From: Escherichia phage vB-EcoP-XT18
Direction: 5' to 3' (one strand)
Length of the DNA: 64,000 nt
Sequence record: OR757434.1
Every line of letters starts with the position of its first letter. The first letter of the stretch is position 1. This document shows, in pieces, positions 30,795-64,000 of the stretch. Under the pieces are notes generated by a model. It saw nothing but the letters and a program-made list of their open reading frames with translations. It did no database searches and was not told where the DNA came from. A program made the position numbers and the translations under genes.

Positions 30795-30806
30795 AATATC
30801 TCCTTG

Positions 30807-32808: not shown

Positions 32809-32820
32809 ATAACCTCCTTC

Positions 32821-32852
32821 TTATAAACAAGAAAAGGGAGCACGAAGCTCCC
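32821..32852 (-). terminator. rho-independent terminator (minus strand)
   Basis: GGGAGC-UUCGU-GCUCCC then UUUUCUUGUUU on the minus strand. Confidence 0.55.
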
Positions 32853-32858
32853 TTAGTA

Positions 32859-35816: not shown

Positions 35817-35825
35817 ACTTCCTCC

Positions 35826-36629
35826 TTAACTAATACGTCTCCAGATATATGCTGCACGGAAAGGTGGTAGCGTATTTATAGGTTGACGAGATACGTCATC
35901 ATAGCCAAATGTTGCATTGCCAGTGATAGAGTGGGTGTGGGTATCAGAACTTGTTACAGCAGAATATCCACTACCTGGACTGTACCAGTTAGGTGAGCTA
36001 TTATGACCACTTGCATCTCCACGTCCAAATGATGTAGTGTGTGAGTGTGTATAGTTAGAAAGAGAAAAACTTGAACCAGAGATTGTAGTCAATGGCAGGT
36101 TCTCTGTCTTAACTGTGTTGTAAACACGACCACCTGTAGCACCAGCAGTAAACTCCACACGCTGAGCATTAGGGACTGTCCCATCAGGGTTCACAACCCC
36201 AGCACCCATGATAACACCAGTAACTGCTGTCCAGATACCAAACCCTAAAGATGTAGAATCTCCAGGGTTAATATCTTCCTCAGTGATGTAATAAGACCCA
36301 ACCCTGTAAATCTTATTCTGCATCCAGTTGAGCATAAAAGATTCCATTTGAGCTTTGGTGGTAAAGTCGCTATTACCAGTACCTGCTGTACCGTTCTTAA
36401 TCATCAGACCACCAACATCCATATAGTCACCAGCAAAAGAGATCTTGTCAGAGATGGCGGCTAGTGTATCAGAATCTACTGTCATAGGCTCAGTTAAGTT
36501 GGGGAATGTGTTCTGTAATACTTGCTTAACTAGGCGCAGCTGGGCTGCACCTTCATAGATATAATCTCTATCACGAGGATAGAGAGGGTTTAAGTCGGTA
36601 ACTACTACCGCATTAGTTTCAATAGCCAA
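35826..36629 (-). CDS. tail-fibre-like structural protein
   Basis: ORF in the late operon; Gly/Ser/Thr-rich C-terminus. Confidence 0.4.
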   Translation of the reverse strand: MAIETNAVVVTDLNPLYPRDRDYIYEGAAQLRLVKQVLQNTFPNLTEPMTVDSDTLAAISDKISFAGDYMDVGGLMIKNGTAGTGNSDFTTKAQMESFMLNWMQNKIYRVGSYYITEEDINPGDSTSLGFGIWTAVTGVIMGAGVVNPDGTVPNAQRVEFTAGATGGRVYNTVKTENLPLTTISGSSFSLSNYTHSHTTSFGRGDASGHNSSPNWYSPGSGYSAVTSSDTHTHSITGNATFGYDDVSRQPINTLPPFRAAYIWRRIS

Positions 36630-36641
36630 GAGGCACCTCCA

Positions 36642-37133
36642 TTAATATTTACCTTCGGTATAAAGATCAGCTTCTGCAACCCTTCTGTTATGAAGACCCT
36701 GACTTCTCTGCTTCACTCCCTTGACCGTTATCTTATCCCAACGAAGAAATTCAGAATATACATCCCCTTTAACGTCTCCATTGATAACCTTCCTTAACTT
36801 AGATGTGCTCAAAGCCCCACTACCAACATTAAAGTTGAAAGAGGTGAGTGCATCAAACTCATGAACTAGCAAAGGAACCTTTATGTTCTTCTGAGTAGCA
36901 CGAACAGAGTCTTGTGTGTCTCTATCTAGCAGAGCTAGACAATCCTCTATAGAATACGTTAATCCTTGTCTAACCGGATAACCATTCATATCGCGCGTAG
37001 CCCCTACACATATCGTCCAGATACCTGCGGAATCTTTATAAGCCTTAGTTCTCATACCCTCATGCTTCATGATAAATTCAATTCCAGCTGGGCTTAAGTT
37101 TAATTGTACAGGTGGCAATGCGGCGTTATCCAT
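36642..37133 (-). CDS. lysozyme (T4 lysozyme-like, GH24)
   Basis: FIMKHEGMRTKAYKDSAGIWTICVG matches the GH24 catalytic region. Confidence 0.75.
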   Translation of the reverse strand: MDNAALPPVQLNLSPAGIEFIMKHEGMRTKAYKDSAGIWTICVGATRDMNGYPVRQGLTYSIEDCLALLDRDTQDSVRATQKNIKVPLLVHEFDALTSFNFNVGSGALSTSKLRKVINGDVKGDVYSEFLRWDKITVKGVKQRSQGLHNRRVAEADLYTEGKY

Positions 37134-37162
37134 TTCTAACCTCCTTTTGTAGTCCCTTTAGA

Positions 37163-37381
37163 TTAAGGTAATATCTTTCTCAGAGCGTTAGATTCAGCAT
37201 CAGGACAAATAACAACTAAGTTATTTTGAATTATTCTCTGCTTACATTGAGAACTAAGTTTCTCTACTGGAGCAGGGATATTTACTAATGGGTGAACTGC
37301 ACCTACAGGAACTGCGGTCGACACCACAACACCTGCACCTAAACACACCAAACCATATGCAGCTTGTTTCATCATTTTCAT
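37163..37381 (-). CDS. small membrane protein, possible holin
   Basis: single 23-aa hydrophobic segment; directly upstream of the lysozyme. Confidence 0.3.
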   Translation of the reverse strand: MKMMKQAAYGLVCLGAGVVVSTAVPVGAVHPLVNIPAPVEKLSSQCKQRIIQNNLVVICPDAESNALRKILP

Positions 37382-37496
37382 TTAAGTGTCTCCTATATAT
37401 TAACCTCTTGAGATATATTAGTTTCATTACCCATCAAGAAAAGGTACTGCTAAAAATTCTTGATGGGCTGTTCTTATCACATATAGAGTATCAAGA

Positions 37497-39569
37497 TCAT
37501 ATCAATCCATAGATGATGTTGTGAAGAACACACCCCCCAACTGCGCCACCTATGTTGAAATTAATTTCAGCCTTACTGGACCCTGGAGGAACTGAATCAA
37601 TAACAGCATAGAAACTGAACGAGTTGTTACTAGGTATGTAATATCCAATAGACTCAGAAACTGCATTACCTGCTGAATCTAGAAACCTAATAGATGCTAG
37701 TGTAGTGGTTGTATTCTTAGCCCAAAAACCAAACTGAAAGTATCTTCCGGGATGACACTCACTCACTGATTGGGTGAAGTTTGCCGAGCTAGTCGTATCT
37801 GGGACACCAAAAGAGAATGATGTGTTAAACATAGGAGACGAACTCGGAACATCATTGGGTTGAGAAACTGACACTACCCCTGATCCTGTTTGACTAAATG
37901 TCCAGTTAGATGTATTTAAGAATTGCCCGGAACCATTACTAAGACTATTAATGTAAGGGCTTACAATAGATCCAAGATCCCACCTACTTAAGACAAAACC
38001 AGCTCTAGGGTAACATCCGTTAGACACAACTCTCTTACTATCACCGCCGATGAGTTGGCGAGTAGGGAAACCAGTGGCTAGAGTATTGTTGCCATACAGA
38101 GGTAGAGAGCAGTTTGTCAGAGAAACAAAACCATCCCCATTACTTACTATAGGGACAGAACTAAAACCTACAGGGACCAAAATTGTCGAATCTTTTATGC
38201 TCAATCTCGAACTACCATTAACAGAAAAAGAAACAAAAGACTGATCCGGTTGATACTCAATGTTCCCATTAGAAAAAACAACTGTGGCGTTGTCTGTCAT
38301 TATAATGGTTGGGTCAAAATATCCAGACTTTTTCCCAGCAGGAAGTGAACACGTATCAAAGATGAATTGTCCATTCTCAAAAGTAAAAGGTCCTCCGTTA
38401 TCCACGCACCAGCAGTGATTGAACTTTATAACTTCTCCAGAGTTCGCTCTTGATTTAAAAACAACCGTGTCCGTAAAGCTTCTACTTATTGCACATTTGT
38501 CAAAAAGGATCCTATATGAATTATCAAGGAATTCAAGACCAGCTGTTGAGATAAAACCACAATTTTCTATCCGAACTTCCGACACCTCCCCACTATCAGT
38601 CCCTCCAATTACAACCTTTCTGGCACCTAGACCAACAAAGGACACTCCTGATATCTTAGCTGTTGAAGAAATCGAATCTCTAAGCCCATAATCTGTGTTT
38701 GAATTTATAATCTTCAAGAAATATTGACCTGTTGCTCCAGCCCCTTCCTGAAGCTTACAATTATTATAGCCTATCAAGGCTCCTTTAGAAACGTCAATAG
38801 CTATCTCAGATAATACGGATCCAGAAGTTGGAACTATACAATCGTAACCAGAGGAGTTCACTTTGTTGATATAAACAGCAATATCCCCGCTGCCAGTGTA
38901 GCCTGCATCAAACACAGAAGCTTCTCCAGAGAATAGCAACCTCTTCCATTTTACAGAAACTCCACTGAAAACCACCACCCCATCAGCTGTTTCTGAATTG
39001 TCTATTGCTACAAACACACCCCCTCCCATATTAGCCCCTTCGACATAAGATCTTACAAAGACTTTGTCACCTACAGAAGCTCCCTCTAAGGTCTGAAGTT
39101 GTTCAATAGAGGGGAGATCTCCAATAAGATTAAACCCTGTAGGCAGGCCTAGTTCTTGAGAGACCACATTAGATACCTGACCTAATGCCACTGCTTCGTC
39201 ACTCTCAACGGCGTTTGGTATACGTATAGGTTGAGAAAAAGTTACCTTATTTGTCATCGAAGTAATATCTGAGTTAGCCCCACTCTTAGCCGCAACCAGT
39301 GCGAGCCTTGCCGTGTCCGGAGAAGAGGCTCCTGTACCACCTTTCGAAATAGGAACAATATTTTCTACAGAAACATCACCTAATCCTAAATTAGATCTAG
39401 CAATAGTAGTATTAATTGCTCCTGTACCACCTTTCGAAATAGGAACAATATTTTCTACAGAAACATCACCTAATCCTAAATTAGATCTAGCAATAGTAGT
39501 ATTAATTGCTCCTGTACCACCTTTCGAAATAGGAACAGGCTCCTGTACCACCTTTCGAAATAGGAACAA
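37497..39569 (-). CDS. tail fibre, C-terminal portion (gene appears split by a frameshift in the repeat array)
   Basis: begins with identical 30-aa tail-fibre repeats (SKGGTGAINTTIARSNLGLG); overlaps the upstream ORF by 68 nt. Confidence 0.6.
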   Translation of the reverse strand: MFLFRKVVQEPVPISKGGTGAINTTIARSNLGLGDVSVENIVPISKGGTGAINTTIARSNLGLGDVSVENIVPISKGGTGASSPDTARLALVAAKSGANSDITSMTNKVTFSQPIRIPNAVESDEAVALGQVSNVVSQELGLPTGFNLIGDLPSIEQLQTLEGASVGDKVFVRSYVEGANMGGGVFVAIDNSETADGVVVFSGVSVKWKRLLFSGEASVFDAGYTGSGDIAVYINKVNSSGYDCIVPTSGSVLSEIAIDVSKGALIGYNNCKLQEGAGATGQYFLKIINSNTDYGLRDSISSTAKISGVSFVGLGARKVVIGGTDSGEVSEVRIENCGFISTAGLEFLDNSYRILFDKCAISRSFTDTVVFKSRANSGEVIKFNHCWCVDNGGPFTFENGQFIFDTCSLPAGKKSGYFDPTIIMTDNATVVFSNGNIEYQPDQSFVSFSVNGSSRLSIKDSTILVPVGFSSVPIVSNGDGFVSLTNCSLPLYGNNTLATGFPTRQLIGGDSKRVVSNGCYPRAGFVLSRWDLGSIVSPYINSLSNGSGQFLNTSNWTFSQTGSGVVSVSQPNDVPSSSPMFNTSFSFGVPDTTSSANFTQSVSECHPGRYFQFGFWAKNTTTTLASIRFLDSAGNAVSESIGYYIPSNNSFSFYAVIDSVPPGSSKAEINFNIGGAVGGCVLHNIIYGLI

Positions 39570-39701
39570 TATTTTCTACAGAAACATCACCTAATCCTAA
39601 ATTAGATCTAGCAATAGTAGTATTAATTGCTCCTGTACCACCTTTCGAAATAGGAACAATATTTTCTACAGAAACATCACCTAATCCTAAATTAGATCTA
39701 G
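39328..39701 (-). repeat. perfect 90-bp tandem repeat array (about 4 full units plus a 31-nt partial unit) inside the tail-fibre gene
   Basis: units at 39328, 39418, 39539 and 39629; truncated 30-nt unit plus one G at 39508-39538. Confidence 0.85.
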
Positions 39702-51725: not shown

Positions 51726-52217
51726 ATGGCTAAGGTAATGCAGGTAGTTAATCTGGCAAGCTATGTACTGGTTGCCGCGATCGGTGTTAGTGCACTGGTA
51801 ACATCTCTTTCTGATAAGGCTATCGCTAGTCCAGCTCCTGCAACTAATGCCGCTGATGTTTTCGCTAGTTCCATTAATAAAGGTTGGATGATTTGCAACG
51901 GTGCGGATAGTGACGGCAATACCATCGCGTTAAAGATGAAATTTAGTAACGTAACAAATGAAGGCGTTCTCTTTCAATCTAAGACGTTGGACGGTCAGCC
52001 TAACAGTGATCTGGTACTCAAGCGTGCTGATAATGATGCGGATATGGTGACGTTCGGCACTGTACAACGTTATGAAGACGTTAAAGCTGTTACCAATCTT
52101 GTGAGCTACGGTCCGGTCAATGAGTCGATGATTGCTACCACTGTTTACAATAACGCTGATAATGCTGTTTACACTGTTCACGTTAATCTAGCCAACTGCA
52201 TCAAGGCCAGTAAATAA
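51726..52217 (+). CDS. secreted protein with signal peptide
   Basis: hydrophobic N-terminus followed by an A-x-A-like cleavage context. Confidence 0.45.
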   Translation: MAKVMQVVNLASYVLVAAIGVSALVTSLSDKAIASPAPATNAADVFASSINKGWMICNGADSDGNTIALKMKFSNVTNEGVLFQSKTLDGQPNSDLVLKRADNDADMVTFGTVQRYEDVKAVTNLVSYGPVNESMIATTVYNNADNAVYTVHVNLANCIKASK

Positions 52218-52243
52218 ATAACCTATTCTTGGGAGTGTAAAAC

Positions 52244-52495
52244 ATGGCTATCAAAGAAGTTAAATTATCTAGCGGGTTTTCTTGTTTTGTTTGTGATACT
52301 TTTATTGCGTTCAGCTTGAAAGAAGATGATGTGATAATCCCTGCCGTTGCTTTTTGTTCCATGAGTTTTAACGAGGCCAAAAAATGGCTTCAATTGGTGC
52401 GCATTGATATTAATCGCGATGACTTCCGATCAATCTATGTTGACGGTGATTTGTCGCTTTCTGGTCTTCTTGAGATTGATTTGCCTAAATGGTGA
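52244..52495 (+). CDS. hypothetical protein
   Basis: ORF. Confidence 0.35.
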   Translation: MAIKEVKLSSGFSCFVCDTFIAFSLKEDDVIIPAVAFCSMSFNEAKKWLQLVRIDINRDDFRSIYVDGDLSLSGLLEIDLPKW

Positions 52496-52506
52496 GGGAT
52501 TGATTC

Positions 52507-52716
52507 ATGGTCAATGGCGTTGTTGTTAATGATAGCGTAACTATCTTTGATAATGTTGTGTCAGTTGCAAGTAGTCGCGGTGAAAGTCGTGTACCGCTTG
52601 CCATATTGTGCAACCTTTCGGAATTTAGCGCACGAATTACGGTTGCTTATTTAGGCGGCACTTTATCCGGCCCTGAATATGTATCTATGCTCAAATACAA
52701 TAAGGAGTGGTCTTAA
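52507..52716 (+). CDS. hypothetical protein
   Basis: ORF. Confidence 0.35.
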   Translation: MVNGVVVNDSVTIFDNVVSVASSRGESRVPLAILCNLSEFSARITVAYLGGTLSGPEYVSMLKYNKEWS

Positions 52717-52979
52717 TGGCTAAAGAGTACAGCTTTACCATCCCGACTCATAACTATGGTGAGATTGATTTCTCATACACTGATAACTCTGACATGTGTT
52801 TAATCCTGTTTACTAGTGGCGATAAGACTAATGCGGTTGAATTTCCTGCCGTTGCTCTAATCATGGATGACGTTATAGCAGGTCAGTATCTGGCGCAACG
52901 TGGGATTCTCCTTTCTCTGGAAGAGATCGAACTACTTAGCGTAGCAGTTTTTGGTGAGGGTAACAGTGATGATTCATGA
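52707..52979 (+). CDS. hypothetical protein
   Basis: ORF. Confidence 0.35.
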   Translation: MVLMAKEYSFTIPTHNYGEIDFSYTDNSDMCLILFTSGDKTNAVEFPAVALIMDDVIAGQYLAQRGILLSLEEIELLSVAVFGEGNSDDS

Positions 52980-53159
52980 CTATTTTTGGCGGTGCTTATT
53001 CGTTGTTACAGTGGCGTCATTCGTCGCTGATATGCTTTATTCTTACATCCTTTGAGGTCCGGTTGTGTTATTTCTGTTTTTGTTTGTCGTTGGCTTCATT
53101 TCTTTAAACTATTTATTGATTGTTGCCGCTTTCGATATTCTTAAACTTATTATTGAAGG

Positions 53160-53534
53160 TTGATTACTATGTGGTTTATTAAATTCGTCGTTAAAACGGT
53201 TGTAGGCTTTTTTCTGGTTGTTCTTCTGTTGGGTGTCCTGCTATCAGCTATGGGTAGCGTTAAGGCTGCAACATTTTCCCCTGCTACGGTTGACGGCTTG
53301 CAATGTACCTACCTTGTAGAAAACTATTCGACTGGTAAAAAGTCACCTAAGGTTATTATTTTACATGTAAATGATTTCGAGCATGTACAATCATACGCTA
53401 AGACTATTCAGCTAGTGAATGAAACCACTGGCAAACAAATCACGGTCGATCACTTGATGCGCTCGTCGTTGACGCTCTTTGACGAGTCTATGAATGAAGT
53501 AGAATCCGGTAACGGTCAGTGTGTAAATCCTTAA
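53160..53534 (+). CDS. membrane-anchored or secreted protein
   Basis: N-terminal hydrophobic segment. Confidence 0.4.
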   Translation: MITMWFIKFVVKTVVGFFLVVLLLGVLLSAMGSVKAATFSPATVDGLQCTYLVENYSTGKKSPKVIILHVNDFEHVQSYAKTIQLVNETTGKQITVDHLMRSSLTLFDESMNEVESGNGQCVNP

Positions 53535-53613
53535 TCCTTGTGGGCCTGTTCTTTTTGACCATTGTCGGTGCAATGGGCCTTTTCTATGCTGTCATAATGT
53601 TAGGAGTTTAAAA

Positions 53614-53937
53614 ATGAAGAAGTTAATCGTTGGCTTGGCTGTTGGTTTGTCTTTGTTTGCTGGTAGTGCTAGCGCATACATGAAATGCGGAAGCATTGGA
53701 GTGGTCACAGCCTCTAATGGTGCTAAAAATCTCACCGCTTTAGGTAAGACTTGGTCCGCTACTGAGGTTATCACTTTAGAAAATGGCTTAAAGGCTGTAA
53801 TCTATGATAACCGGAAAGATGGTTCAATTCTTCGGGTTGTTCCTACGGAAGATGGGAAAACGGTTGCCATTATCTATTATCGAGATGCGGAATCTAATCT
53901 TAATGGTAATCCTGTGCTTTCCGGTATGTGCCGATAG
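53614..53937 (+). CDS. secreted protein with signal peptide
   Basis: MKKLIVGLAVGLSLFAGSASA signal peptide. Confidence 0.45.
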   Translation: MKKLIVGLAVGLSLFAGSASAYMKCGSIGVVTASNGAKNLTALGKTWSATEVITLENGLKAVIYDNRKDGSILRVVPTEDGKTVAIIYYRDAESNLNGNPVLSGMCR

Positions 53938-53965
53938 TCTATCTGATGCTCTAAATCCTTCCTAT

Positions 53966-53990
53966 AAGCCTCCTAGTGAGGCTTTTCTCA
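53966..53990 (+). terminator. rho-independent terminator
   Basis: AAGCCUC-CUAGU-GAGGCUU then UUCUCAUUU. Confidence 0.55.
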
Positions 53991-54149
53991 TTTCTAAGGT
54001 GATTGTATTCCTTACCCTCCTTTAGCTCATTGTGATGCGTCTGAGAGCGTCAAATAGTGCTTTACAAGCCTGTTTTAGTATGTTATTCGCGTGCGCGTTC
54101 CTTTACCTACTCCTCTACGAAAAAGTTTAAAATAATTTGCTTTGCCCTA

Positions 54150-54177
54150 TTGCATTACTCACTGGTTGGCGTATACT
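54150..54177 (+). promoter_or_regulatory. sigma70-type early promoter (TTGCAT-16-TATACT)
   Basis: -35 at 54150-54155, -10 at 54172-54177; boxA-like element about 50 nt downstream. Confidence 0.45.
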
Positions 54178-54224
54178 TCAATTCATCGGGTACGATGAAA
54201 AACATACAAGGCAAGAAATTGCCC

Positions 54225-54234
54225 CGCTCTTTAA
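54225..54234 (+). promoter_or_regulatory. boxA-like element CGCTCTTTAA
   Basis: identical to the core of rrn and lambdoid nut boxA. Confidence 0.5.
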
Positions 54235-54273
54235 AAATCAGGCTAGAAAGTGAAAAAATACTTGAAAAAGTAT

Positions 54274-54301
54274 TTGACAACTGGAAAGCCTAACCTATAA
54301 T
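54274..54301 (+). promoter_or_regulatory. strong sigma70-type early promoter (TTGACA-16-TATAAT)
   Basis: consensus -35 at 54274-54279 and -10 at 54296-54301; A/T-rich upstream region. Confidence 0.7.
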
Positions 54302-54333
54302 GAGCATAAGTCAGCGATGACGTGAAACATCCC

Positions 54334-54343
54334 CGCTCTTTAA
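54334..54343 (+). promoter_or_regulatory. boxA-like element CGCTCTTTAA
   Basis: about 35 nt downstream of the promoter. Confidence 0.5.
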
Positions 54344-54420
54344 AAACTTATCATCTTGCCCTTTCGCATAGATTCAAGCGAGATAAGGGAAAAGAATAAA
54401 AGAAGATGATAAAAAAGAGG

Positions 54421-54449
54421 TTGCAAACGTGGTTAAGGTAGTTCATACT
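54421..54449 (+). promoter_or_regulatory. sigma70-type promoter candidate (TTGCAA-17-CATACT)
   Basis: -35 and -10 hexamers with 17-nt spacer. Confidence 0.35.
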
Positions 54450-54610
54450 AACCACAAGTTAACAAAACAACGTTAACTAGTTCCCAAGTCAACGTATCGC
54501 GGGAAAGGTGGCACATAGTGCAGCGAGTAGTTCGGGAGTAGGCGCCCCGTTAATGAATAAGTAAGCCTTTAATGATGCAGTGATTAGCAGACACTATAAA
54601 AGGCTAAAAA

Positions 54611-54620
54611 CGCTCTTTAA
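54611..54620 (+). promoter_or_regulatory. boxA-like element CGCTCTTTAA (full context ACGCTCTTTAACAA)
   Basis: closest of the four copies to the rrn boxA sequence. Confidence 0.55.
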
Positions 54621-54726
54621 CAATATGGATCATAAGTTTAAGCCTTATCGCTTAATCTTCAATCAAATAAAGCTGGTTGATATATCCTCCCAATAGCGGG
54701 AACGACGAAAAAGATTAAAAAAGCGG

Positions 54727-54755
54727 TTGACAGCAAAAACATCATGGTCCATAAT
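54727..54755 (+). promoter_or_regulatory. strong sigma70-type early promoter (TTGACA-17-CATAAT)
   Basis: -35 at 54727-54732 and -10 at 54750-54755; A-rich upstream region. Confidence 0.65.
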
Positions 54756-54847
54756 GAGCGTACTCACTAGGCAAATCACCGCTTCAGTGAAAAGCGAAAC
54801 AACGGCTTACAGTTGCGTAGCGTGAGAAAGCACGCTGACAGATTTAC

Positions 54848-54857
54848 CGCTCTTTAA
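54848..54857 (+). promoter_or_regulatory. boxA-like element CGCTCTTTAA
   Basis: about 95 nt downstream of the promoter. Confidence 0.5.
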
Positions 54858-55530
54858 TAATTTAAACGTCCCCATATATCGGTTAAATATGCTGGAAGAT
54901 AATAACCATCGGAAAGCATACCAGATAAAACGGCGTAAAACTCCCTAAACCATCAGGGTAAACAGTTTTACAATCCCTTAACTGGAAACGTCACCACTGA
55001 TAAGCGGATTCATTGAGTACACGCAACGGTTTAAGCTAATCGCCCACGGTTAAGGGTAGCGGCGGCCATCGCTAACACGGTGCTACAGTGAAATAAGTTA
55101 ATCAGGGCAGACAAGTCCGACGAAATAACGCTCAATTGAGAGCGGCGGGGGATGGTTAAAGGGTAGCAAATTGCTATTTAACAATAAGGTTTAGTGTGAA
55201 CGTTTACGATGCGAACGGCTTGAGATTCGTCTTATGATGAAAGTACATAGTCGGTTTATGTAGTAAACTCGCCGAAAGATATAAAACGCCGGAATAATAG
55301 GCGGTTAGTGACTCTTTCGCAATAGTATCCCATAGTGGGCGATGACTAGCGAAAGAGAGCTGATATAAAAGGATAGGCGGGAGCGAAAGCAAAGTAAACG
55401 ATATTGCCGACGGTTACATCAATGTAACTAATTAGAGTCGGACGCACTGCCTTATTGTGGTGATTGATCATCGCTATCAGGTCGGCTTGGTTTATAGCGA
55501 CTAATTAAAGATACCAGTTGAAACACCACG

Positions 55531-55578
55531 GATAAGGGGGCGGCAAGGTTAACTCCTGACAAGACCGCCCCCCTTATC
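55531..55578 (+). other. long GC-rich hairpin (13-14 bp stem, 21-nt loop) in the early leader, possible RNA processing site
   Basis: GATAAGGGGGCGG ... CCGCCCCCCTTATC inverted repeat. Confidence 0.4.
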
Positions 55579-55679
55579 AATAATTACTTAACAATGAGTG
55601 ATTATCGATAAGTCAATGGCGACTTAAAAAGCTCATAGAGAGCGGGGCATAGTGCCCTTACAATTGAAAGGTGAATATC

Positions 55680-56579
55680 ATGGCTAAAATTTTTAATCTG
55701 GTTAAAGAATCTGGTTTTAACGCACTGGCTAACAACATTCGCAGCAATAACGCGGCGATCAAACAAGATGTTTCTAATTTTCTGTTAGGGCACTTGCAGC
55801 ACTTCCGTAGCAATGGTAAAAAGCTGGACGTATTGCAGGCGGCGGTCGATTTTCTGTTAACCGAACGTTTCCGCGATATGGATGTGATTGCCACTGCAAT
55901 TACTTTCCTGACTCCGATCAAGTTTAACACCGATGCGGCAAATGGGCGTAAGAAGTGGATTAATCTGGAAGGTGAAGCGAAAGCGAAAGAAGATGCGAAA
56001 GAAGCGCAAATTAAGGCCAAAATGGAACAAAACCGAGCTCGCTGGTCAAATGCTTTCGAAAATTTTGCCCTCGGTCGTGAAATTGAAGTCGATAATCCTA
56101 ACTTTTACAAAGGTTGCAATGACAACGTGGCGGCCCACCTTCAAATCCCGGCGAAAAATAAGGAAGATTTTAACCAAGATATTTACGCCTTAGTTGAACG
56201 CTTGAATGCAATCCGTATTGAAGCCAAATTGCTGGCTGATGAGCGCAACGGCGCTACCAGTGATAATACTATTGCCTTGAGTGAAGAAGTGGGGAAAGTT
56301 AAAAAGTCCTTTGATTCACTCATCAAGAAAGTCACGGCTTCAACGGTAGCGATCTCTGACGACTATCTGATGAACGCATCAAGCAAGGAGCTGGAATCAC
56401 TTGATTCATATGCCGATGAAATGGAATCAACCATCGCAAAAATGCAGGAAAAATTGGATAATCTGCGCGGTCGTATCTCTTCAACAGTTGCAATCCGTAC
56501 CGAACAAGCTGCGAAAGAAGAAGAGGAAGAAGTATTGCGTAAAGCGGCTGAGATTATGGCGGCACGTCAGGCGGCATAA
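55680..56579 (+). CDS. first early protein, helical, unknown function
   Basis: ATG at 55680 with AAAGG RBS; E. coli-like codon usage; terminator follows. Confidence 0.5.
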   Translation: MAKIFNLVKESGFNALANNIRSNNAAIKQDVSNFLLGHLQHFRSNGKKLDVLQAAVDFLLTERFRDMDVIATAITFLTPIKFNTDAANGRKKWINLEGEAKAKEDAKEAQIKAKMEQNRARWSNAFENFALGREIEVDNPNFYKGCNDNVAAHLQIPAKNKEDFNQDIYALVERLNAIRIEAKLLADERNGATSDNTIALSEEVGKVKKSFDSLIKKVTASTVAISDDYLMNASSKELESLDSYADEMESTIAKMQEKLDNLRGRISSTVAIRTEQAAKEEEEEVLRKAAEIMAARQAA

Positions 56580-56601
56580 GTAAGACAATCTAAATAAACA
56601 T

Positions 56602-56636
56602 AAGGCGCTATCTTAACGGGTAGCGCCTTTTCTTTT
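56602..56636 (+). terminator. rho-independent terminator
   Basis: 9-bp stem AAGGCGCUA/UAGCGCCUU then UUCUUUUAU. Confidence 0.6.
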
Positions 56637-56681
56637 ATCAGTGCATTGATTCAGTGCATTAATCAAAGAATCTAATCAAAG

Positions 56682-56909
56682 GTGATGATCATGTTAATTA
56701 CGCATACCACGATTTATAGGAATCTTGTCAACGGTCAACATTACCGCCTATCTAAAAAGTATGGCGTTGAATGTAAATGTGTTATTACCGGTGAATGGTA
56801 TCCGTCGCCAATGAAGATTGAAACGTTGGAACGTGACGCTGTTAGTTATGTTATCACGCAAGAAACAACGTTAGGCCGTATCTTAAGAAAGCTGGGATTA
56901 AGAAAATGA
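56682..56909 (+). CDS. hypothetical early protein
   Basis: ORF. Confidence 0.4.
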   Translation: MMIMLITHTTIYRNLVNGQHYRLSKKYGVECKCVITGEWYPSPMKIETLERDAVSYVITQETTLGRILRKLGLRK

Positions 56910-57130
56910 TATTCAGTAGCAATTTTGGCAAGTGTCCTATTTGTGAGAAACATCGCAGCACGGGAAATCATCGAAAATGTAGTAAGATATTACAGCGTCA
57001 ACGTGATAACAATCATTGGGATACTGTACACACTAATCAGCGTAAAGAAGAAGTTAGAAAAATGGCTGTTAAAGCATCATTTGCTCAATCCACCCGTATT
57101 GAACACATTCAAAGGTATCAAGCATTATGA
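56906..57130 (+). CDS. small Cys/His-rich early protein
   Basis: CPICEKH...H..C; overlapping frame 56925-57137 is less likely. Confidence 0.35.
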   Translation: MIFSSNFGKCPICEKHRSTGNHRKCSKILQRQRDNNHWDTVHTNQRKEEVRKMAVKASFAQSTRIEHIQRYQAL

Positions 57131-57336
57131 TCACTAACATTTCAGAATTTAAGAAAGCACCTTCCCGCTTGTTAGGCCGTCGTGTAGTATATCTTTATAG
57201 CAACAAAGGTAAATGTACAACCGGAAGAATTACAACGGTGAGTAGTGCCAATAAGAAACTACTAAAATTATGTGTAGCTATGGATGACGGTACAATCCTG
57301 CTACGCAGTTGGAAGTCATTTAGTTTACTCGATTAA
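57127..57336 (+). CDS. hypothetical early protein
   Basis: ORF. Confidence 0.4.
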   Translation: MITNISEFKKAPSRLLGRRVVYLYSNKGKCTTGRITTVSSANKKLLKLCVAMDDGTILLRSWKSFSLLD

Positions 57337-57405
57337 GTTATTTGTTCAAGCCTATCGACTTGATGGGCTTGCCCGATATAACTTATCACTGAAAGGAATA
57401 AGATT

Positions 57406-57849
57406 GTGGCTAAATCTAAAATCAGCATGAAGGGCGGGCGTTGTTTTTCTATCTCTGAACTGGAGAAAGAGAAGCCGAAGGCAACCAATCACGTCAGTAA
57501 GCGCAGTTTAAAACGTCGTGCTGCAAAGGCTGAAGCTGAATCTCATATCCCTTCTAGTGTGGCAAAACGTGTAGGCCATCGCGTCCATCGTGCTGATGCG
57601 TTATTGTTAGCCGATCACAAACGTTCTTTATTACAGAGCGGGGGAGCTAAAACAGAAGAGGAGAAGAAGTTAGAAATCTTCTGTAATGGTCGCACCCGTG
57701 GTAAACAGAAATTTAAAGGTAGCACGAAAGACCCGCAGGCTTTTCCTAAGACAAGTCAGTGTGCACCTGATGTATTCTACGCAGATAGCAAACACAAATG
57801 GGGAGTTGAAAAATACATTGACCCCATCAAAGAGGCAAGGGTTAAGTAG
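57406..57849 (+). CDS. basic early protein
   Basis: Lys/Arg-rich ORF with RBS. Confidence 0.45.
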   Translation: MAKSKISMKGGRCFSISELEKEKPKATNHVSKRSLKRRAAKAEAESHIPSSVAKRVGHRVHRADALLLADHKRSLLQSGGAKTEEEKKLEIFCNGRTRGKQKFKGSTKDPQAFPKTSQCAPDVFYADSKHKWGVEKYIDPIKEARVK

Positions 57850-57929
57850 TAGGAATATAGTCCCCTCTTTTAGTACTATGACGCTCTTTCTATCGCGTCG
57901 TGCCTTCTCCCCATTTGAAGCTTCCGCAT

Positions 57930-57955
57930 AGCCGCCTTTGAGCGGCTTTTGTCGT
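57930..57955 (+). terminator. rho-independent terminator
   Basis: AGCCGC-CUUUGA-GCGGCU then UUUGUCG. Confidence 0.5.
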
Positions 57956-58014
57956 TGCCGTAAGCGCATTTACGAGTGTTTTTACTGCAATAGTCATGTA
58001 TTGCTTTCAGGTTT

Positions 58015-58042
58015 GCCCCGGCTACGGCTGGGGCTTTTTTAT
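58015..58042 (+). terminator. strong rho-independent terminator
   Basis: 8-bp stem GCCCCGGC/GCUGGGGC then UUUUUUA. Confidence 0.7.
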
Positions 58043-58089
58043 GCCCGTAAAACAGGAGGTAGCAAGTTCTGATAACAACGGCCCAGCTA

Positions 58090-58479
58090 ATGTTGACATT
58101 GACTATTTATTATGAGGCAGGGGACCAGCCAACCGCATGTAAAGCTATGGTTGCGGATACCGTGATAAATAGAATGGCTCAACGAAAACTGACCGCTGAA
58201 CAGGTGATAAGACAAAAGAACCAGTTTGAGTGGATTCCGGTACTATTAAAACAGGAGAAACCTTATAAACGTTATGTAAAGCTGGTTCGTGATAAAAATC
58301 CGATGACTAGGCAAACCATTGGAGAAAGCGAGCGACTTGCTAAACGTGCCCTTAAGAAGAATTATGTTCCTCTGTATAGTGGGACTTACTTTCAGAGTAA
58401 GAGCGAAGGGGTGCCAAAATGGTATGCCAATCCTATGTATTGTGGTGATTTAGTGTTCGATAATAGCTCTAGGGAATAA
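58090..58479 (+). CDS. SleB/CwlJ-like cell-wall hydrolase domain protein
   Basis: YYEAGDQPTACKAMVADTVINRM ... QFEW resembles the Hydrolase_2 signature. Confidence 0.45.
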   Translation: MLTLTIYYEAGDQPTACKAMVADTVINRMAQRKLTAEQVIRQKNQFEWIPVLLKQEKPYKRYVKLVRDKNPMTRQTIGESERLAKRALKKNYVPLYSGTYFQSKSEGVPKWYANPMYCGDLVFDNSSRE

Positions 58480-58678
58480 TCACTAGTGCCAGATTTGACA
58501 AACTAAATTCCTTTATAAACCAACCACTTAGTAAATTTATTGAAAAAGATGGTAGTATTCTGGGACTATGGGTAATGCTCTGTATATAGACCCTTTGAAA
58601 ATTTCTTAGAAAATAAGTTTACTAAATATAACTTACTTAAATAATATTACTTTTAATCTCTGATAAAGGGTAAATAAT

Positions 58679-58975
58679 ATGACTTTAGAAGTATATAAAT
58701 TCCTTTTTGTAAGCTGTTTAACTATCAGCGTTATAGGATTTATTGTTCTCAGAAACAAAGCAGCAAGCTGGGAGAGAATGTATAGATCTCTAGTCCGAGT
58801 GGATGAGATGTATAATGAGAAAGTTAAAGCAACGCTTAATGATCTTATTATGCAAGTAGAGGACAGAAACAAGCGTCTTCAGAATCTCAACCATGAAGTA
58901 TTGCGCCTTGCTCGTGCTAATGAAGACTTGCGAGTAGCTATTGCTAAACAGCAGGAGATTAACAGTGAAAGTTAA
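58679..58975 (+). CDS. membrane-anchored coiled-coil protein
   Basis: N-terminal TMD then heptad-rich segment. Confidence 0.4.
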   Translation: MTLEVYKFLFVSCLTISVIGFIVLRNKAASWERMYRSLVRVDEMYNEKVKATLNDLIMQVEDRNKRLQNLNHEVLRLARANEDLRVAIAKQQEINSES

Positions 58976-59198
58976 TATTAAGCCTGATCATACTACACTT
59001 CGTTTAAATAACATGAGGCCGGGTGCTCTGTTTCATTTTAAAGGTTCTCTCTATATCAGAACCGGATTAACAACTGACTATCACGTCAATTGTGTTAACG
59101 TGGTTTCTGGAGAGCTTATTGTTATCAGCAAAAACGAAGTCTGCCAAGTGCGCAATGATCTCCACATAACTAACATCGAGGCTAAAGATGAAGATTGA
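58941..59198 (+). CDS. small early protein, paralog family B
   Basis: shares L..G(D/S)(V/L)F core with 59188, 59446, 60419 and 62457 ORFs. Confidence 0.4.
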   Translation: MLNSRRLTVKVNIKPDHTTLRLNNMRPGALFHFKGSLYIRTGLTTDYHVNCVNVVSGELIVISKNEVCQVRNDLHITNIEAKDED

Positions 59199-59445
59199 TC
59201 TTGAATTAAAAGACCCAGACCTTACAGTGGGTGATTTAAAGCTTGGAGATGTGTTCCAAGTTAAAGCTACACGCGTCGATCATTATTTGGTTGTTAGTTT
59301 ATTCACTCCACACGTAACCGAGTCGAACAGGAAAGATTCTGGAACAGTTGTGCTTGGTTTAAGAACTAATCAGGTTATGAAGCTCAATTCAAAACTTCCT
59401 GTAATCCTTATCCCAGATGCAGTAATTACTAATAAAGGTAAGTGA
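59188..59445 (+). CDS. small early protein, paralog family B
   Basis: DLKLGDVFQVK. Confidence 0.45.
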   Translation: MKIDLELKDPDLTVGDLKLGDVFQVKATRVDHYLVVSLFTPHVTESNRKDSGTVVLGLRTNQVMKLNSKLPVILIPDAVITNKGK

Positions 59446-59664
59446 ATGGAAATTAAAGTGGTTGATTATCCTAAATATGCAAATGCAGAAGACGTTAAGG
59501 GTGGTGATGTTTTCTCTTACGATAAACGTTTCTGGCTGATGCTAGAAGATAAAACCCTTGATGGTTTGTGTAAGGCTGCTAACTTGAGCAGTGGTTATGT
59601 TGAAGTCTTCGGTCTATCAACCACTATTATGCCACGTCCTGATCTGTGTTTATCCCAAAAGTAA
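59446..59664 (+). CDS. small early protein, paralog family B
   Basis: DVKGGDVFSYD. Confidence 0.45.
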   Translation: MEIKVVDYPKYANAEDVKGGDVFSYDKRFWLMLEDKTLDGLCKAANLSSGYVEVFGLSTTIMPRPDLCLSQK

Positions 59665-60171
59665 CACCGACTTATAGCCCTTGTGTTTACCAGAGGGCTA
59701 TGTGAGGGTGTTCCTCATTAACTTATTAATTCAGGCATATGCCACACCGCTAGGGAGAGCTTGCTCAAACATCCGGTGCTAGACTAAAACCTGTTAATTT
59801 TCGAAAGACTTTCCGGTATGTAGGGGTACGTATTGGTTTGGGATTCAGGAGACTTCCTAGGGGTAGGGAGTCTTCACCAGTTGGAATAAGAGATAGCTCT
59901 AGAACCTGAACTCTTAGGCAGAGAAGGTCGGCAATGAGTACGCGGTCAGGATTAGTCTACTGACTAGGGCTATCCCTTATATCAACTGGCAATAATGCCT
60001 CCACTAACAAAGAGAGATAGGTATGAAAGTATCAACCAAACGTATGAACCGCCCTGAGCGTATGGATGCAGTAGCTAACGGTGCTCTGAAACTGGAAGGC
60101 TTCTGGGTTCATGCAATGTCGGCTATTCGTAACAAGCAAGGTAATTGGACATATAACAGTTAATAAATAAA

Positions 60172-60200
60172 AGGCTGCCTTCGGGCGGCCTTTGTTGTTT
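60172..60200 (+). terminator. rho-independent terminator
   Basis: AGGCUGCC-UUCG-GGCGGCCU then UUGUUGUUUU. Confidence 0.65.
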
Positions 60201-60245
60201 TAATTAAGGGACAACTCTTACTTAAACTAACAAGAGGAAGCTCAA

Positions 60246-60419
60246 ATGTCTAAGCAAACAATCAAGAATACACAAGCTGGTTACTCTTATGTTAACTCTC
60301 CTTGCTGTGGTGCTCGTGTTAATCTGGTTAAGGAAGAGGTTCGTATCGTTCAGCGTGGCGCTACTGTTGTTCGTTCATGCTGTGTCTGTGGTAATGATAT
60401 TTTTATCAAAGGTAAAGTA
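60246..60419 (+). CDS. small zinc-ribbon protein (57 aa, below the track cutoff)
   Basis: CCGA...CCVCG; RBS present. Confidence 0.35.
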
Positions 60420-60643
60420 TGATTATCGTCCACTCTGAACCTAAAGATAATACTTTTGGTAGTCTACGTAATGGTGATGTATTCTCTCTAGAAATAGACG
60501 GGGATACAAAACCTCCTTTATACATGAAGGTTATGCACAGACATGCTATCTGTATAAAGAATCCTGAAACAAGATTCACCTTTGATAGAACTTGCCCTGT
60601 CAAATACTATCAAGCTACCCTAAATGTTAGGAGAGTAGGATGA
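60419..60643 (+). CDS. small early protein, paralog family B
   Basis: SLRNGDVFSLE. Confidence 0.45.
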   Translation: MIIVHSEPKDNTFGSLRNGDVFSLEIDGDTKPPLYMKVMHRHAICIKNPETRFTFDRTCPVKYYQATLNVRRVG

Positions 60644-60891
60644 AAAACTTCCAAGCTGCACCAATAACTAAAGCGATCGCAGTTAGTGATGTGATGATGA
60701 CTGTTCCTCTGAACACTCGTTACATTGCAATTGACAAGATGGGTTATGTATGGGCTTGGAAGATTAAGCCTAGCTATAACGCATTGTTTGACGAGTTTGT
60801 TTGTACTGGTACTTACAGTCCTACATTCTTGGGTTTATTTGGAGAGTTTGAAGGTCAGTATAAAATCATTACTCTCCCTGCTTGTGTTTGA
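60640..60891 (+). CDS. hypothetical protein
   Basis: ORF. Confidence 0.4.
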   Translation: MKNFQAAPITKAIAVSDVMMTVPLNTRYIAIDKMGYVWAWKIKPSYNALFDEFVCTGTYSPTFLGLFGEFEGQYKIITLPACV

Positions 60892-60896
60892 GGTTC

Positions 60897-61132
60897 TGGT
60901 GAAGACTAAAGAGGTTAAATATTTTGGTGAAGTTATTAAAATAGGTAACTCTATAAGATATTTAGCAACTGATAGCAACGGCGAAGTGTATGGGTTTACT
61001 CATAAGCCAGAAATTCGTGGGTATGCTTGGGCACTCCCTTATGGAACTCCATTCGAGACTGGAGGGGCTGTTTATCTTAATGATAATGGACCTCTGTTTG
61101 GGTGGAAAACATCTCTCGTTGAGGTGGTATAA
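60897..61132 (+). CDS. hypothetical protein
   Basis: likely GTG start within track ORF 60725-61132. Confidence 0.35.
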
Positions 61133-61307
61133 TTATGTTCAAGTGGTTTAAATATCTCTTCCATCTCCATGAGTGGGAGACAATCAAAGCGGTTAGTTTA
61201 AATACATACAATGAGTTTGGTAAACTGGAAAGTACCGGAACTCGTTACATACTTCGATGTAAAACATGTGGTCATATCACTAAGCGGGATATGATCTAAG
61301 AGGTGTT

Positions 61308-61517
61308 ATGTTCTTTCGTAAGAAAAAGCCCGAAGATTCTGGATGTAAACATGAGTGGGTGATCACTGAAAACTTACATATCACTCACGCTAAAGACACT
61401 CCAGTTGAAGCGAAAGAGTCTCGTGTATCTCGTGTCTGTAAACGCTGTTTGAAAATAGAACAGCATAAAGTCCCCGGTCATATAGGTCATGATGTGGCCT
61501 TGCGTATCTTCAGTTAA
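61308..61517 (+). CDS. hypothetical protein
   Basis: ORF. Confidence 0.4.
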   Translation: MFFRKKKPEDSGCKHEWVITENLHITHAKDTPVEAKESRVSRVCKRCLKIEQHKVPGHIGHDVALRIFS

Positions 61518-61535
61518 ACAAATTCAGAGGTTAAT

Positions 61536-61844
61536 GTGAAACAAAAGCATTTTATCATCTCAACCTTACTACTAATGACAACCATTGGTATCATCTCTGT
61601 TAATAGTGCAGAGATTGGGGTTAAGTATCAGAGTGTTCAGCAATGCACTCTTAAAGAGCATAGCTTAACTGGTATCAAAGAATCTCATGGTATGGTAAGA
61701 GATGGGCTTCTGTTTGTAGAAACAACTTCTGGTAATCGTGTCATGGCTACTGATGGCAAAGAAACAAAGTATGCCTACTTCCCTGATACAACAGGCTACT
61801 ACACTTTTGAAGAGAAGGATTGTAAGAAGTCTTTCTCTTTATAA
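61536..61844 (+). CDS. secreted or membrane-anchored protein
   Basis: N-terminal hydrophobic signal-like segment. Confidence 0.45.
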   Translation: MKQKHFIISTLLLMTTIGIISVNSAEIGVKYQSVQQCTLKEHSLTGIKESHGMVRDGLLFVETTSGNRVMATDGKETKYAYFPDTTGYYTFEEKDCKKSFSL

Positions 61845-61853
61845 ATAAATCAA

Positions 61854-61928
61854 GTCCCTATAGTTAAAAGGATATAACAGATTTCTTCTAAAAATCCATT
61901 CTAGGTTCGAGTCCTAGTGGGGACGCCA
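61854..61928 (+). tRNA. tRNA-Arg (anticodon UCU) with encoded CCA
   Basis: hand-folded cloverleaf: 7-bp acceptor stem with one G-U, D arm GTTA/TAAC, anticodon stem GATTT/AAATC with loop CTTCTAA, T arm CTAGG-TTCGAGT-CCTAG, discriminator G. Confidence 0.8.
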
Positions 61929-61948
61929 AATCAAATAGGAGGTGTGTT

Positions 61949-62248
61949 ATGAGTTGGGGTGGTGTAATATCCTTAATCTGTATCTTCCTTGTCTGTGTGG
62001 CCCTTACAGGCTGCGTACAGAGCCGTCCTGATAGATGGTGTGCAGTAGCAGTGGATGGTATTTGTGTATCTCGCTGGCATAAAGGTGAGAAGGTTCCTTC
62101 TGGTGAAATTGATATGCGCTGGAACGGAGCAACCTGCTCTAATGCTAACCCTTCTATCAACGAAGAGAAGTCTACGCCAGACAATGTTGTGATTGATACA
62201 GCGTTGTGGTGTGGTGGCTCTACGACTACAACCGGTAAGGAGTGGTGA
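61949..62248 (+). CDS. lipoprotein, candidate superinfection-exclusion protein
   Basis: signal peptide ending in lipobox LTGC. Confidence 0.45.
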   Translation: MSWGGVISLICIFLVCVALTGCVQSRPDRWCAVAVDGICVSRWHKGEKVPSGEIDMRWNGATCSNANPSINEEKSTPDNVVIDTALWCGGSTTTTGKEW

Positions 62249-62249
62249 T

Positions 62250-62447
62250 ATGAATTACACGTCTACAAAGGTGTTAATTGATTCGATTAATAACACCTCA
62301 GAAGCTGTACAGGAGCGTTTAATACAAGATGTAAGCAATGATATTAAGTTCTTTGTTAAACGCCGCCTGTTAGGTTCTAAGGCTTATTACAGAGCTAAAG
62401 CTGAGTTAACTAAGAGAGTGTTTCTCTTACACGGCTTGGTGTATTAA
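62250..62447 (+). CDS. hypothetical protein
   Basis: ORF (track 62193-62447, first plausible ATG at 62250). Confidence 0.35.
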   Translation: MNYTSTKVLIDSINNTSEAVQERLIQDVSNDIKFFVKRRLLGSKAYYRAKAELTKRVFLLHGLVY

Positions 62448-62456
62448 GGAACTCGT

Positions 62457-62678
62457 ATGAAATTAGATTCTAAACAATCCCTTAAAACTGTTGAACTGTC
62501 CACACTGCCAAACGGAAGTATTTTTGGTCATGATAAACACTTCTGGATTAAAACAGACTACTTGAACGATGGGTATATTACCTGCGTCAACCTTTGGAAT
62601 GGTTCAGTGGATGGCTATCGCCCTAGTGCAAAAGTAGTCCCTCAGCCTGATGCAAAGGCTATAGGTTTAGTTTATTAA
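62457..62678 (+). CDS. small early protein, paralog family B
   Basis: TLPNGSIFGHD. Confidence 0.45.
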   Translation: MKLDSKQSLKTVELSTLPNGSIFGHDKHFWIKTDYLNDGYITCVNLWNGSVDGYRPSAKVVPQPDAKAIGLVY

Positions 62679-63213
62679 GGAGTTTATATGAGCTGTTTTG
62701 GTGGTGGTGAAATAGATGACGATTATGACATGGAATCCAACGGTACATGTCCTGATTGTGGGTGTGAAACATTTGATGGAGTGTCAGTATATCCTGCCTG
62801 TAGTTATTCACCAGTAGTTTGTAAAACATGTGGAGATCAACCTTGTGATCAGTCCTGTTAAGAGGTTTTATGACTGAAGAATTTTTAAAGTGGTTTGGAA
62901 ATACCTTCAAAGAATATCTATTCTCTCCAGAAGACTTTGAAGAGCTGAAAACCTACACTTGGTTGGCTTGGAGAGATAGCCGACGAGAGATGAATAAGTA
63001 ATATCGTGAAGGATTCTTACGAGAGTCCTTTGAGATAGGACTTCAGATCTCCTATCAAACTAACATTCACGTAACTAGCCCATAAGGGCGTTACCCTTTA
63101 ATAACCCAGCCCACTAAGGGGGCGGGAGTTTAGTGCTGGATTTAGCATAACGCTTATTCCTACAAAGGCATCCGATTGTTAGATCTTACATGCAATATTA
63201 ATTAATAGGATAA

Positions 63214-63240
63214 GGGAGGATTCGTCCCCTCCCCCTATTT
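63214..63240 (+). terminator. weak hairpin terminator
   Basis: GGGAGG ... CCUCCC then CUAUUUAU. Confidence 0.3.
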
Positions 63241-63650
63241 ATAAATTATCAGGAGGGTGCATTAGCTGATTAGCTGTAGAAGGGAGGCTGATATCTACAG
63301 CGTGGCCCAGAGTTAGTGTACTCTCCTGATGAGTAGATACCTCATCACGGTAAGCTGTGGAATAATCTTTACAGAAGTTACTTAAAGTAGCCTGTACGGC
63401 CCTCAGCAAAGAGTCCGGACGATATCTGAGTGACTTTAAAAACAGATGGAGCCAGGTGGAATCCCTGGCAATCAATTACAGGTATAGCTTATGAGGCTAA
63501 TTAATGCAGAGCCTATGGTAAAGCAGTCGCCCGTGGTCAAATGACCGTATGCCCATTGGGTGCATCCCTTTGGTGATGGCTAGGGAGTCCGAGCGTAGGT
63601 CCGAACCCTACACCTGTAACCAAATCAAACAATATCTAATTGGAGGATGT

Positions 63651-63962
63651 ATGAAAGCTCGAAGAACTATATGGACTCCGATGCAGATTGAAAATCTTCG
63701 GAGACTAATCAAAGAGTACTCTGTTCAAGAGGTTGCTCAGATTATGAATGTAACGGAGAATGCAGTTAATACAGCTTGCACTAAGTTTGGTATATCAAGA
63801 GCTGCAATCCGAGTCAAGTGGTCTAAAGAAGAAGACCAGTTCCTTATCCGTAATGCTGGGTTCATGTCTATTCAGAGAATGGCTGACATGCTCGGTAGAA
63901 GCTATGCTGCTGTACAGAACAGGGCATGTATGCACCTTAACATTAGCCTTAAACTTAAATAG
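63651..63962 (+). CDS. Myb/SANT-like double-HTH DNA-binding protein
   Basis: two W...EE/Q..L.......Q.MA..LGRS..AVQNRA-type repeats; ATG at 63651 with GGAGG RBS inside track ORF 63549-63962. Confidence 0.45.
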   Translation: MKARRTIWTPMQIENLRRLIKEYSVQEVAQIMNVTENAVNTACTKFGISRAAIRVKWSKEEDQFLIRNAGFMSIQRMADMLGRSYAAVQNRACMHLNISLKLK

Positions 63963-64000
63963 GAATCAATATGAAAGTTAACGAGTTAAATAGAACTACC

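Follow-up and report, generated by a model that had tools for sequence, protein, structure and literature searches.

Small paralogous proteins with a predicted SH3-like barrel in the putative early region of a Kuravirus-like coliphage

When several short open reading frames (ORFs) on one strand of a phage genome have a motif of a few residues in common, do they descend from a single gene, and what might their products do? The question was raised for a stretch of 64,000 nucleotides (nt) from Escherichia phage vB-EcoP-XT18 (sequence record OR757434.1), which was analyzed over its whole length and is called the window below. An earlier note, made from the sequence alone, had described in it five small, early and uncharacterized paralogues built around an L..GDVF core, of a kind typical of host-takeover or anti-defence families. 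Judged by its matches, the window is Kuravirus (phiEco32-like) coliphage DNA: megablast of positions 58000-63000 matched 99 phage records, all of them Kuravirus-like (Gordonclarkvirinae) with E. coli and Shigella as hosts, and phage vB-EcoP-XT32 (XT32) was 100% identical over 58000-61782. All five of the claimed ORFs were found on the + strand with the motifs quoted for them, and are labeled here by position:

Paralogue A, 58965..59198, + strand: 77 amino acids (aa), GTG start; orthologue of phiEco32 gp115; PHROG 16423.
Paralogue B, 59188..59445, + strand: 85 aa; orthologue of phiEco32 gp114; PHROG 9955.
Paralogue C, 59446..59664, + strand: 72 aa; orthologue of phiEco32 gp113; PHROG 6570.
Paralogue D, 60419..60643, + strand: 74 aa; orthologue of phiEco32 gp109; PHROG 10911.
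Paralogue E, 62457..62678, + strand: 73 aa; orthologue of phiEco32 gp104; PHROG 6570; the most 'central' member.

The five motifs had been given in an order that did not follow the coordinates: NMRPGALF belongs to the ORF at 58941, DLKLGDVF to that at 59188, DVKGGDVF to 59446, SLRNGDVF to 60419 and TLPNGSIF to 62457. The first of these ORFs is a real gene, but the TTG start at 58941 is probably too long. We preferred GTG 58965, because an AGGAG ribosome-binding site (58951-58955) lies 9 nt upstream of it, the same start is annotated in phage XT73 (as a 234-nt coding sequence) and in phiEco32, and the alignment with PHROG 16423 covers residues 9-85 of the longer, TTG-started form. With this start the N terminus of A comes into register with the others, so that all five proteins begin M-K/E/I-hydrophobic and carry G-x-x-F at residues 19-23. 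The first 11 nt of B, from its ATG on, are also the last 11 nt of A, the C ATG directly follows the B stop, and the D ATG overlaps the ORF upstream of it by 4 nt; these overlapping and abutting starts and stops suggest translational coupling. The phiEco32 orthologues are every one annotated as 'hypothetical'. Compared with the orthologues of phiEco32 and phage EP335, the ratio of nonsynonymous to synonymous substitution rates (dN/dS) was 0.14-0.16 for A, 0.15-0.34 for B, 0.12-0.13 for C and 0.07 for D, and all five are real genes under purifying selection (dN/dS 0.07-0.34). Their isoelectric points (pI) range from 4.9 to 9.1.

Formal pairwise alignment, by whose failure the earlier note would have seen its claim refuted, bore out A, C and E outright, and B and D failed it. 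Smith-Waterman scores against 500 shuffles gave z=11.2 for A-E, 13.8 for C-E, 4.3 for B-D and 3.1 for C-D, the remaining pairs of the five being not significant. Among the window's 453 ORFs, phmmer paired C with E (7.8e-8) and A with E (8e-5) and found no significant match for B or D. Orthogroup profiles were then built from 88 sorted homologues and compared by hhalign, which joined A-E at 1.4e-9, C-E at 1.8e-9 and A-C at 7e-5, as well as B-C at 4e-4 (59 columns) and C-D at 2e-4 (24 columns), with all reversed controls at 0.05 or above. A merged A/C/E profile aligned with B end to end over 72 columns (probability 90%, E=1.4e-6); the alignment of D with a profile of A, C and E only covered just 35 columns. 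A broad family profile of 135 sequences, which included neither B nor D, matched B at 96.8% probability and E=3e-10, again end to end over 72 columns, and D at 71.6% and E=3.5e-5 over 56 columns (residues 9-71), and reversed-sequence controls all gave E values of 0.03 or more. As a hidden Markov model (HMM) run against all 453 ORFs, the broad profile returned paralogue E at 4.7e-25, A at 7.8e-19, C at 2.8e-17, B at 3.5e-5 and D at 3.7e-3, the best window ORF after these five lying at E=1.5. Hhalign against every early + strand ORF placed the five at probabilities of 70-99.5% and the next at 3.9%.

These results show one paralogous family, with z values of 11-14 among A, C and E, profile E values of 3e-10 for B and 3.5e-5 for D, and a clear gap to the other ORFs of the window. 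B and D are remote members, detectable by profiles only. That either or both are not homologues, and have only a short convergent N-terminal motif in common with A, C and E, is very unlikely: most pairs with B or D are not significant, D aligns briefly with the A/C/E-only profile, and D lacks the invariant second glycine of the family, but the broad profile spans the whole of B and most of D, reversed controls stay at noise, and phiEco32 gp98 bridges the two sides, being matched by the D-group HMM at 2.8e-8 and matching the family HMM at 4.5e-7. Distant members of the family likewise reach the PHROGs of both proteins, nine matching PHROG 9955 and two PHROG 10911. D is also predicted with the same strand order as E (predicted local distance difference test score, pLDDT, of 90), not as independent evidence, since the alignment held family members.

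Structure prediction, which the earlier note had also proposed, gave an SH3-like small beta-barrel. AlphaFold2 run on E with the A/C/E alignment returned a pLDDT of 86.4 and a predicted template modeling score (pTM) of 0.72, with strands at residues 22-25, 28-37, 40-45, 51-54 and 59-62. D, modeled with the family alignment, scored 89.8 and 0.78 and was predicted with N- and C-terminal strands in addition. With good confidence, the predicted fold is thus a five-stranded antiparallel SH3-like small beta-barrel of approximately 60-70 residues. Foldseek against BFVD retrieved dozens of small uncharacterized phage proteins at template modeling (TM) scores of 0.7-0.87; against the PDB it retrieved only EF-P/eIF5A, at E>0.01 and TM of about 0.5. 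Over the 135 members the hydrophobic core is conserved (I3, L14, L17, F23, Y30, I31, C43, V44, L46, F54, V60, A66, V68 and I70) and two turn glycines, G20 and G49, are invariant. The polar positions D21, K32 (K/R), T33 (83%), D34 and N45 are semi-conserved. Sequence is near-random, and length variable, in the N-terminal arm and at the C terminus as well as in the beta2-beta3 hairpin and the beta4-beta5 loop. The L..GDVF core noticed at first is a structural element, a turn glycine and a core phenylalanine leading into the first barrel strand, rather than a motif of evident function. B carries an insertion of approximately 11 residues in the beta2-beta3 hairpin and is without the conserved second glycine, and D, the most diverged of the five and an accessory member, has its insertion before beta2.

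A count of five proved too low. Nine copies occur in the genome, namely the five, a sixth (F) that is cut by the end of the window, and three (G, H and I) beyond it. The copies past the end were read from XT32, whose record matches the window end base for base; relative to that record, the window is circularly permuted and reverse-complemented.

Paralogue F, 63971-64000, + strand: first 10 codons (MKVNELNRTT), cut by the window end; 84 aa in XT32.
Members in phiEco32: gp115, 114, 113, 109, 104, 98, 97, 96 and 95.

G, H and I would lie at approximately 64222-65418 in extended coordinates, within about 1.4 kb past the window; in XT32 the stretch from F onward is at 10950-12397, - strand. The family HMM scored F at 5.7e-12, G at 1e-10, H at 3.4e-4 and I at 7e-14 in XT32, and F-G-H form a second tightly packed array besides A-B-C. 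The same HMM scan found nine members each in phiEco32 and XT32, eight in XT73, a close relative from which C is missing, and 11 in EP335. At E<=1e-8, orthologues of A, B, C and D were present in 68, 70, 66 and 22 records of the phage collection. F starts 9 nt after a D5-like regulator gene, and in phiEco32 this slot holds instead the D-like gp98 (locus 10595-10825), which suggests cassette replacement within the family. The duplications are old, because adjacent copies are not the closest relatives of each other; identity among copies is 18-27%. Orthologues of A fall into two classes, five records at 95-99% identity and 63 at 60-80%, whereas for C and E most orthologues are 90-95% identical. 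The rate of evolution of A and B is much higher than that of the genes beside them, and their orthologues are far more divergent than those of C and E.

On sequence evidence the family is not specific to Kuravirus. The exhaustive profile search, a check of the kind that the earlier note had named, returned 656 cluster representatives from metagenomes at E<=1e-3, nearly all of them standalone proteins of 63-90 aa, and family lengths and reading frames are conserved across genera. In cultured phages, tblastn with a consensus sequence found members in Kuravirus-like phages, Proteus (Privateervirus), Cronobacter C3-type phages, Pseudomonas ZC03 (N4-like) and Aeromonas 59.1. Phage N4 gp21 (HMM E=1.1e-18) and PaP3 ORF.65 (E=1.8e-7) are members by sequence and resemble the window proteins at a Foldseek TM of approximately 0.75; both are small standalone proteins in non-structural gene blocks. 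They differ in being present as one copy each (the scan covered all of PaP3 and, of the 70 kb of N4, only the first 22 kb), and N4 gp21 lies downstream of the RNAPII genes and not at the very start of the genome. Proteus phage 3H10_20 has two adjacent copies, and ZC03 one (gp79) in the 40 kb scanned. A single-sequence, word-indexed search with paralogue E recovered close orthologues only.

Genuine tandem fusions of two to five copies also exist, as several two-copy proteins and one five-copy protein. The latter, from a metagenome-assembled genome of Tenacibaculum sp. (MFV0249145.1, 478 aa), has an SprT-like metalloprotease domain at its N terminus and, after it, five barrel copies in tandem, each with an independent E value of about 1e-7 to 1e-8; no other multi-domain architecture was found in the family. 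Other candidates were rejected. Matches in multiple stretches of large beta-rich repeat proteins were spurious; proteins with Big_5 and DUF7507 domains had no stretch at a domain E<=0.01 on re-scanning, and three more large repeat proteins, with only short partial stretches, were treated likewise. A separate search for related loci with a consensus sequence returned only two marginal ones; these were pattern-driven, with ORFs at E values of approximately 0.01-0.03, and were not accepted as members.

The description of the family as uncharacterized held. Sequence matches were confined to PHROGs of unknown function, with none in Pfam, NCBIfam, PADLOC or the PDB, and the literature searched gave nothing on function. 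No Pfam family was matched by the five or accepted for the 135 relatives, PF08207 appearing once at E=0.0012, below its curated cutoff; NCBIfam gave no match and PADLOC no meaningful one. A PDB sequence search with the family profile gave nothing meaningful (best E=0.04, over a 19-residue stretch). No match to a catalogued defence or anti-defence family was found in PADLOC, NCBIfam and Pfam, among which there is no dedicated anti-defence HMM library. The literature searched held no description of the paralogy and no functional, toxicity or anti-defence data for any member, N4 gp21 included. The window five are strong PHROG members (E=1e-31 to 1e-41), and PHROGs 6570, 16423, 9955 and 10911, as well as 7832, 8365, 7431, 34455 and 12612, are all listed as 'unknown function'. 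PHROGs thus keep at least nine separate families where our profiles show one superfamily with one predicted fold, and distant members match several PHROGs at once.

The other half of the question, what these proteins might do, depends in part on when they are made. The early block occupies the + strand from 52000 to 64000, extends past the window end and wraps into middle (replication) genes at the window start, and the late genes are on the - strand at approximately 22000 to 51000 (from guanine-cytosine skew and the annotations of relatives). Pattern matching found the following sites, the promoter-like ones on the strand of the paralogues:

54274-54301, + strand: sigma-70 promoter-like site, 12/12 consensus match.
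54727-54755, + strand: sigma-70 promoter-like site, 11/12 consensus match.
55556-55584, + strand: sigma-70 promoter-like site, 10/12 consensus match.
58015-58034: terminator-like hairpin upstream of the A-B-C array.
60170-60193, + strand: terminator-like hairpin between the A-B-C array and D.

All three promoter-like sites lie within 1.3 kb, upstream of the five paralogues, and probably correspond to the strong early promoters that have been reported, likewise as a cluster, in phiEco32 and SU10 (PMC4281155). The gene block orthologous to the five has been placed experimentally in the early class in phiEco32 (PMC8948821, PMC4281155). The paralogues are in that sense putative early genes: transcription early in infection by the host RNA polymerase is carried over to the present phage by analogy with phiEco32, and the terminator-like hairpins stand between the sigma-70-like sites and the paralogues.

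We tentatively propose, with a probability of roughly 40%, that the family is a set of diversified early binding modules for host takeover or anti-defence. Each paralogue would be synthesized as infection begins and would act stoichiometrically, as a small module that binds protein, with the conserved hydrophobic core as a stable scaffold. Specificity would lie in the variable N-terminal arm and C-terminal tail and in two connections between strands, the beta2-beta3 hairpin and the beta4-beta5 loop, so that different copies might bind, modulate or inhibit different host or host-defence proteins. We favor this proposal because the conserved positions are almost all core residues or turn glycines, the loops and termini being near-random, because even close relatives differ in how many copies they have and in which ones, and because the block is early in phiEco32 and preceded here by consensus sigma-70 sites. 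Protein binding is favored over nucleic-acid binding because most members of the family are acidic, with a median pI of 5.1. Gordonclarkvirinae resist restriction-modification systems without a known inhibitor (PMC11990801), which is circumstantially compatible with anti-defence genes not yet recognized.

Several points weigh against the binding-module proposal. The literature searched records no binding partner, phenotype or toxicity for any member, and no homology to characterized host-takeover or anti-defence proteins was found. SH3-like barrels serve many functions, so that the fold says little about the role, and the model of D is not independent evidence, its alignment having contained family members. 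N4 gp21 and ZC03 gp79 are single-copy, so that multi-copy diversification is not general to the family, and the early class itself is transferred from phiEco32. The semi-conserved D21, K32-T33-D34 and N45 could reflect a shared ligand rather than diversified targets. In a bolder form of the proposal, which we consider improbable, the SH3-like scaffold is fixed and carries a repertoire of hypervariable mini-binders, each copy neutralizing a different host defence or factor. The 8-11 copies would then add to the unexplained broad resistance of Gordonclarkvirinae to restriction-modification and other defence systems and, if this is true, natural inhibitors could be drawn in large numbers from the at least 650 metagenomic clusters, as yet untapped.

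It is rather unlikely, though the best placed of the alternatives, that the proteins are RNA-, ribosome- or RNA polymerase-associated factors, like KOW domains, EF-P domain I, uL2 or the Tudor barrels of CarD and the UvrD C terminus, which would dock on the ribosome or on the RNA polymerase beta subunit and redirect early translation or transcription. The likeness to the Tudor-like RNA polymerase-binding barrels (CarD/TRCF-RID and the UvrD/PcrA C-terminal domain) and to the VapX antitoxin is at the level of fold only, with no Pfam matches; no toxin partner gene is evident beside the copies, although no test was aimed at VapD-like genes. Homology to EF-P, hinted at by Foldseek and by a look-alike 'NL.TG' pattern, was rejected at an hhalign probability of 0.6% against E. 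coli EF-P, and no sequence relationship to the N-terminal KOW-like domain of EF-P/eIF5A (PF08207) was detectable. The window proteins are standalone, whereas EF-P has three domains. EF-P also has a conserved, post-translationally modified lysine in its beta3-beta4 loop (K34, PGKG); this loop has no equivalent in the family, in which the corresponding hairpin is variable and has no conserved lysine.

Less plausible again is that the proteins all bind one shared ligand by way of the semi-conserved polar patch. They might, for example, be sponges for a small molecule or signaling nucleotide, or attach to a single conserved host protein, with the paralogues as dosage or specificity variants. The persistence of D21, K32/R, T33, D34 and N45 over 135 very diverse members, beside the invariant G20 and G49, speaks for such a ligand, and the tandem fusions might fit oligomeric binders. 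However, in the present phage K-T-D occurs only in E, A having R-T-G and B, C and D being without it; the polar positions may merely stabilize tight turns, and no similarity to known sponges was found. That the copies are dispensable 'filler', a selfish or neutral expansion of a small ORF, is hardly credible, for although no phenotype is known, copy number varies and D is missing from most relatives, every copy is under purifying selection, lengths and frames are conserved across genera, and N4-like, PaP3-like and many metagenomic phages have kept the family.

The paralogues stand among other small genes, some of which drew attention in their own right. A 98-aa ORF (58679-58975, + strand) that runs at its 3' end into the start of paralogue A is labeled 'DNA helicase' in several related records; this is probably a propagated misannotation, since 98 aa is far too short for a helicase. 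The adjacent small ORFs 60640-60891 and 60899-61132 (+ strand) have a common stretch, 'RY(I/L)A.D..G.V....KP', with a Smith-Waterman z of 4.3 that 2 of 1000 shuffles reach and no significant blastp match, and may be a second, older paralogue pair. Two further adjacent small ORFs, 61135-61299 and 61308-61517 (+ strand), each carry a zinc-ribbon-like 'HEW...C(K/R).C', their similarity being marginal (z=3.1). Neither of these two pairs, which were picked out by eye, reached a blastp E value below 0.01. Additional cysteine-rich mini-ORFs lie at 60246-60422 and 62688-62861. Two other features were noted between D and E:

61854-61928, + strand: tRNA-Arg (anticodon TCT), amid early genes, as in phiEco32 and EP335.
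61949-62248, + strand: 99-aa ORF after the tRNA-Arg, 'putative phage lipoprotein' in relatives.

A module of the amidoligase type (amidoligase, COOH-NH2 ligase, glutamine amidotransferase and S6-glutaminyl-transferase-like genes) is similar in Kuravirus, Proteus Privateervirus and Pseudomonas PaP3, and in all three it shares a transcription block with family members (phiEco32 14693-18190, Proteus 24707-31809 and PaP3 32292-39596).

Host-takeover and anti-defence inhibitors come mainly from small early phage proteins, most of which are still unannotated. Other lytic phages have small, fast-evolving, multi-copy gene families at their early ends, with copy numbers that vary between relatives. The present family is of this general kind, but it and its fold are absent from the curated libraries and the literature searched. 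Nothing is overturned, since multi-copy small early families are expected in lytic phages; the superfamily is uncatalogued, but its kind is familiar, and the reading of the earlier note was a reasonable one. At least nine unlinked PHROGs of unknown function are merged into one superfamily with a confident predicted fold, one that has no Pfam, NCBIfam or PDB entry and yet occurs in the model phages N4, phiEco32 and PaP3 and in 8-11 copies in Kuravirus-like genomes. With K-12-infecting kuraviruses now in the BASEL collection, its members form a tractable target set.

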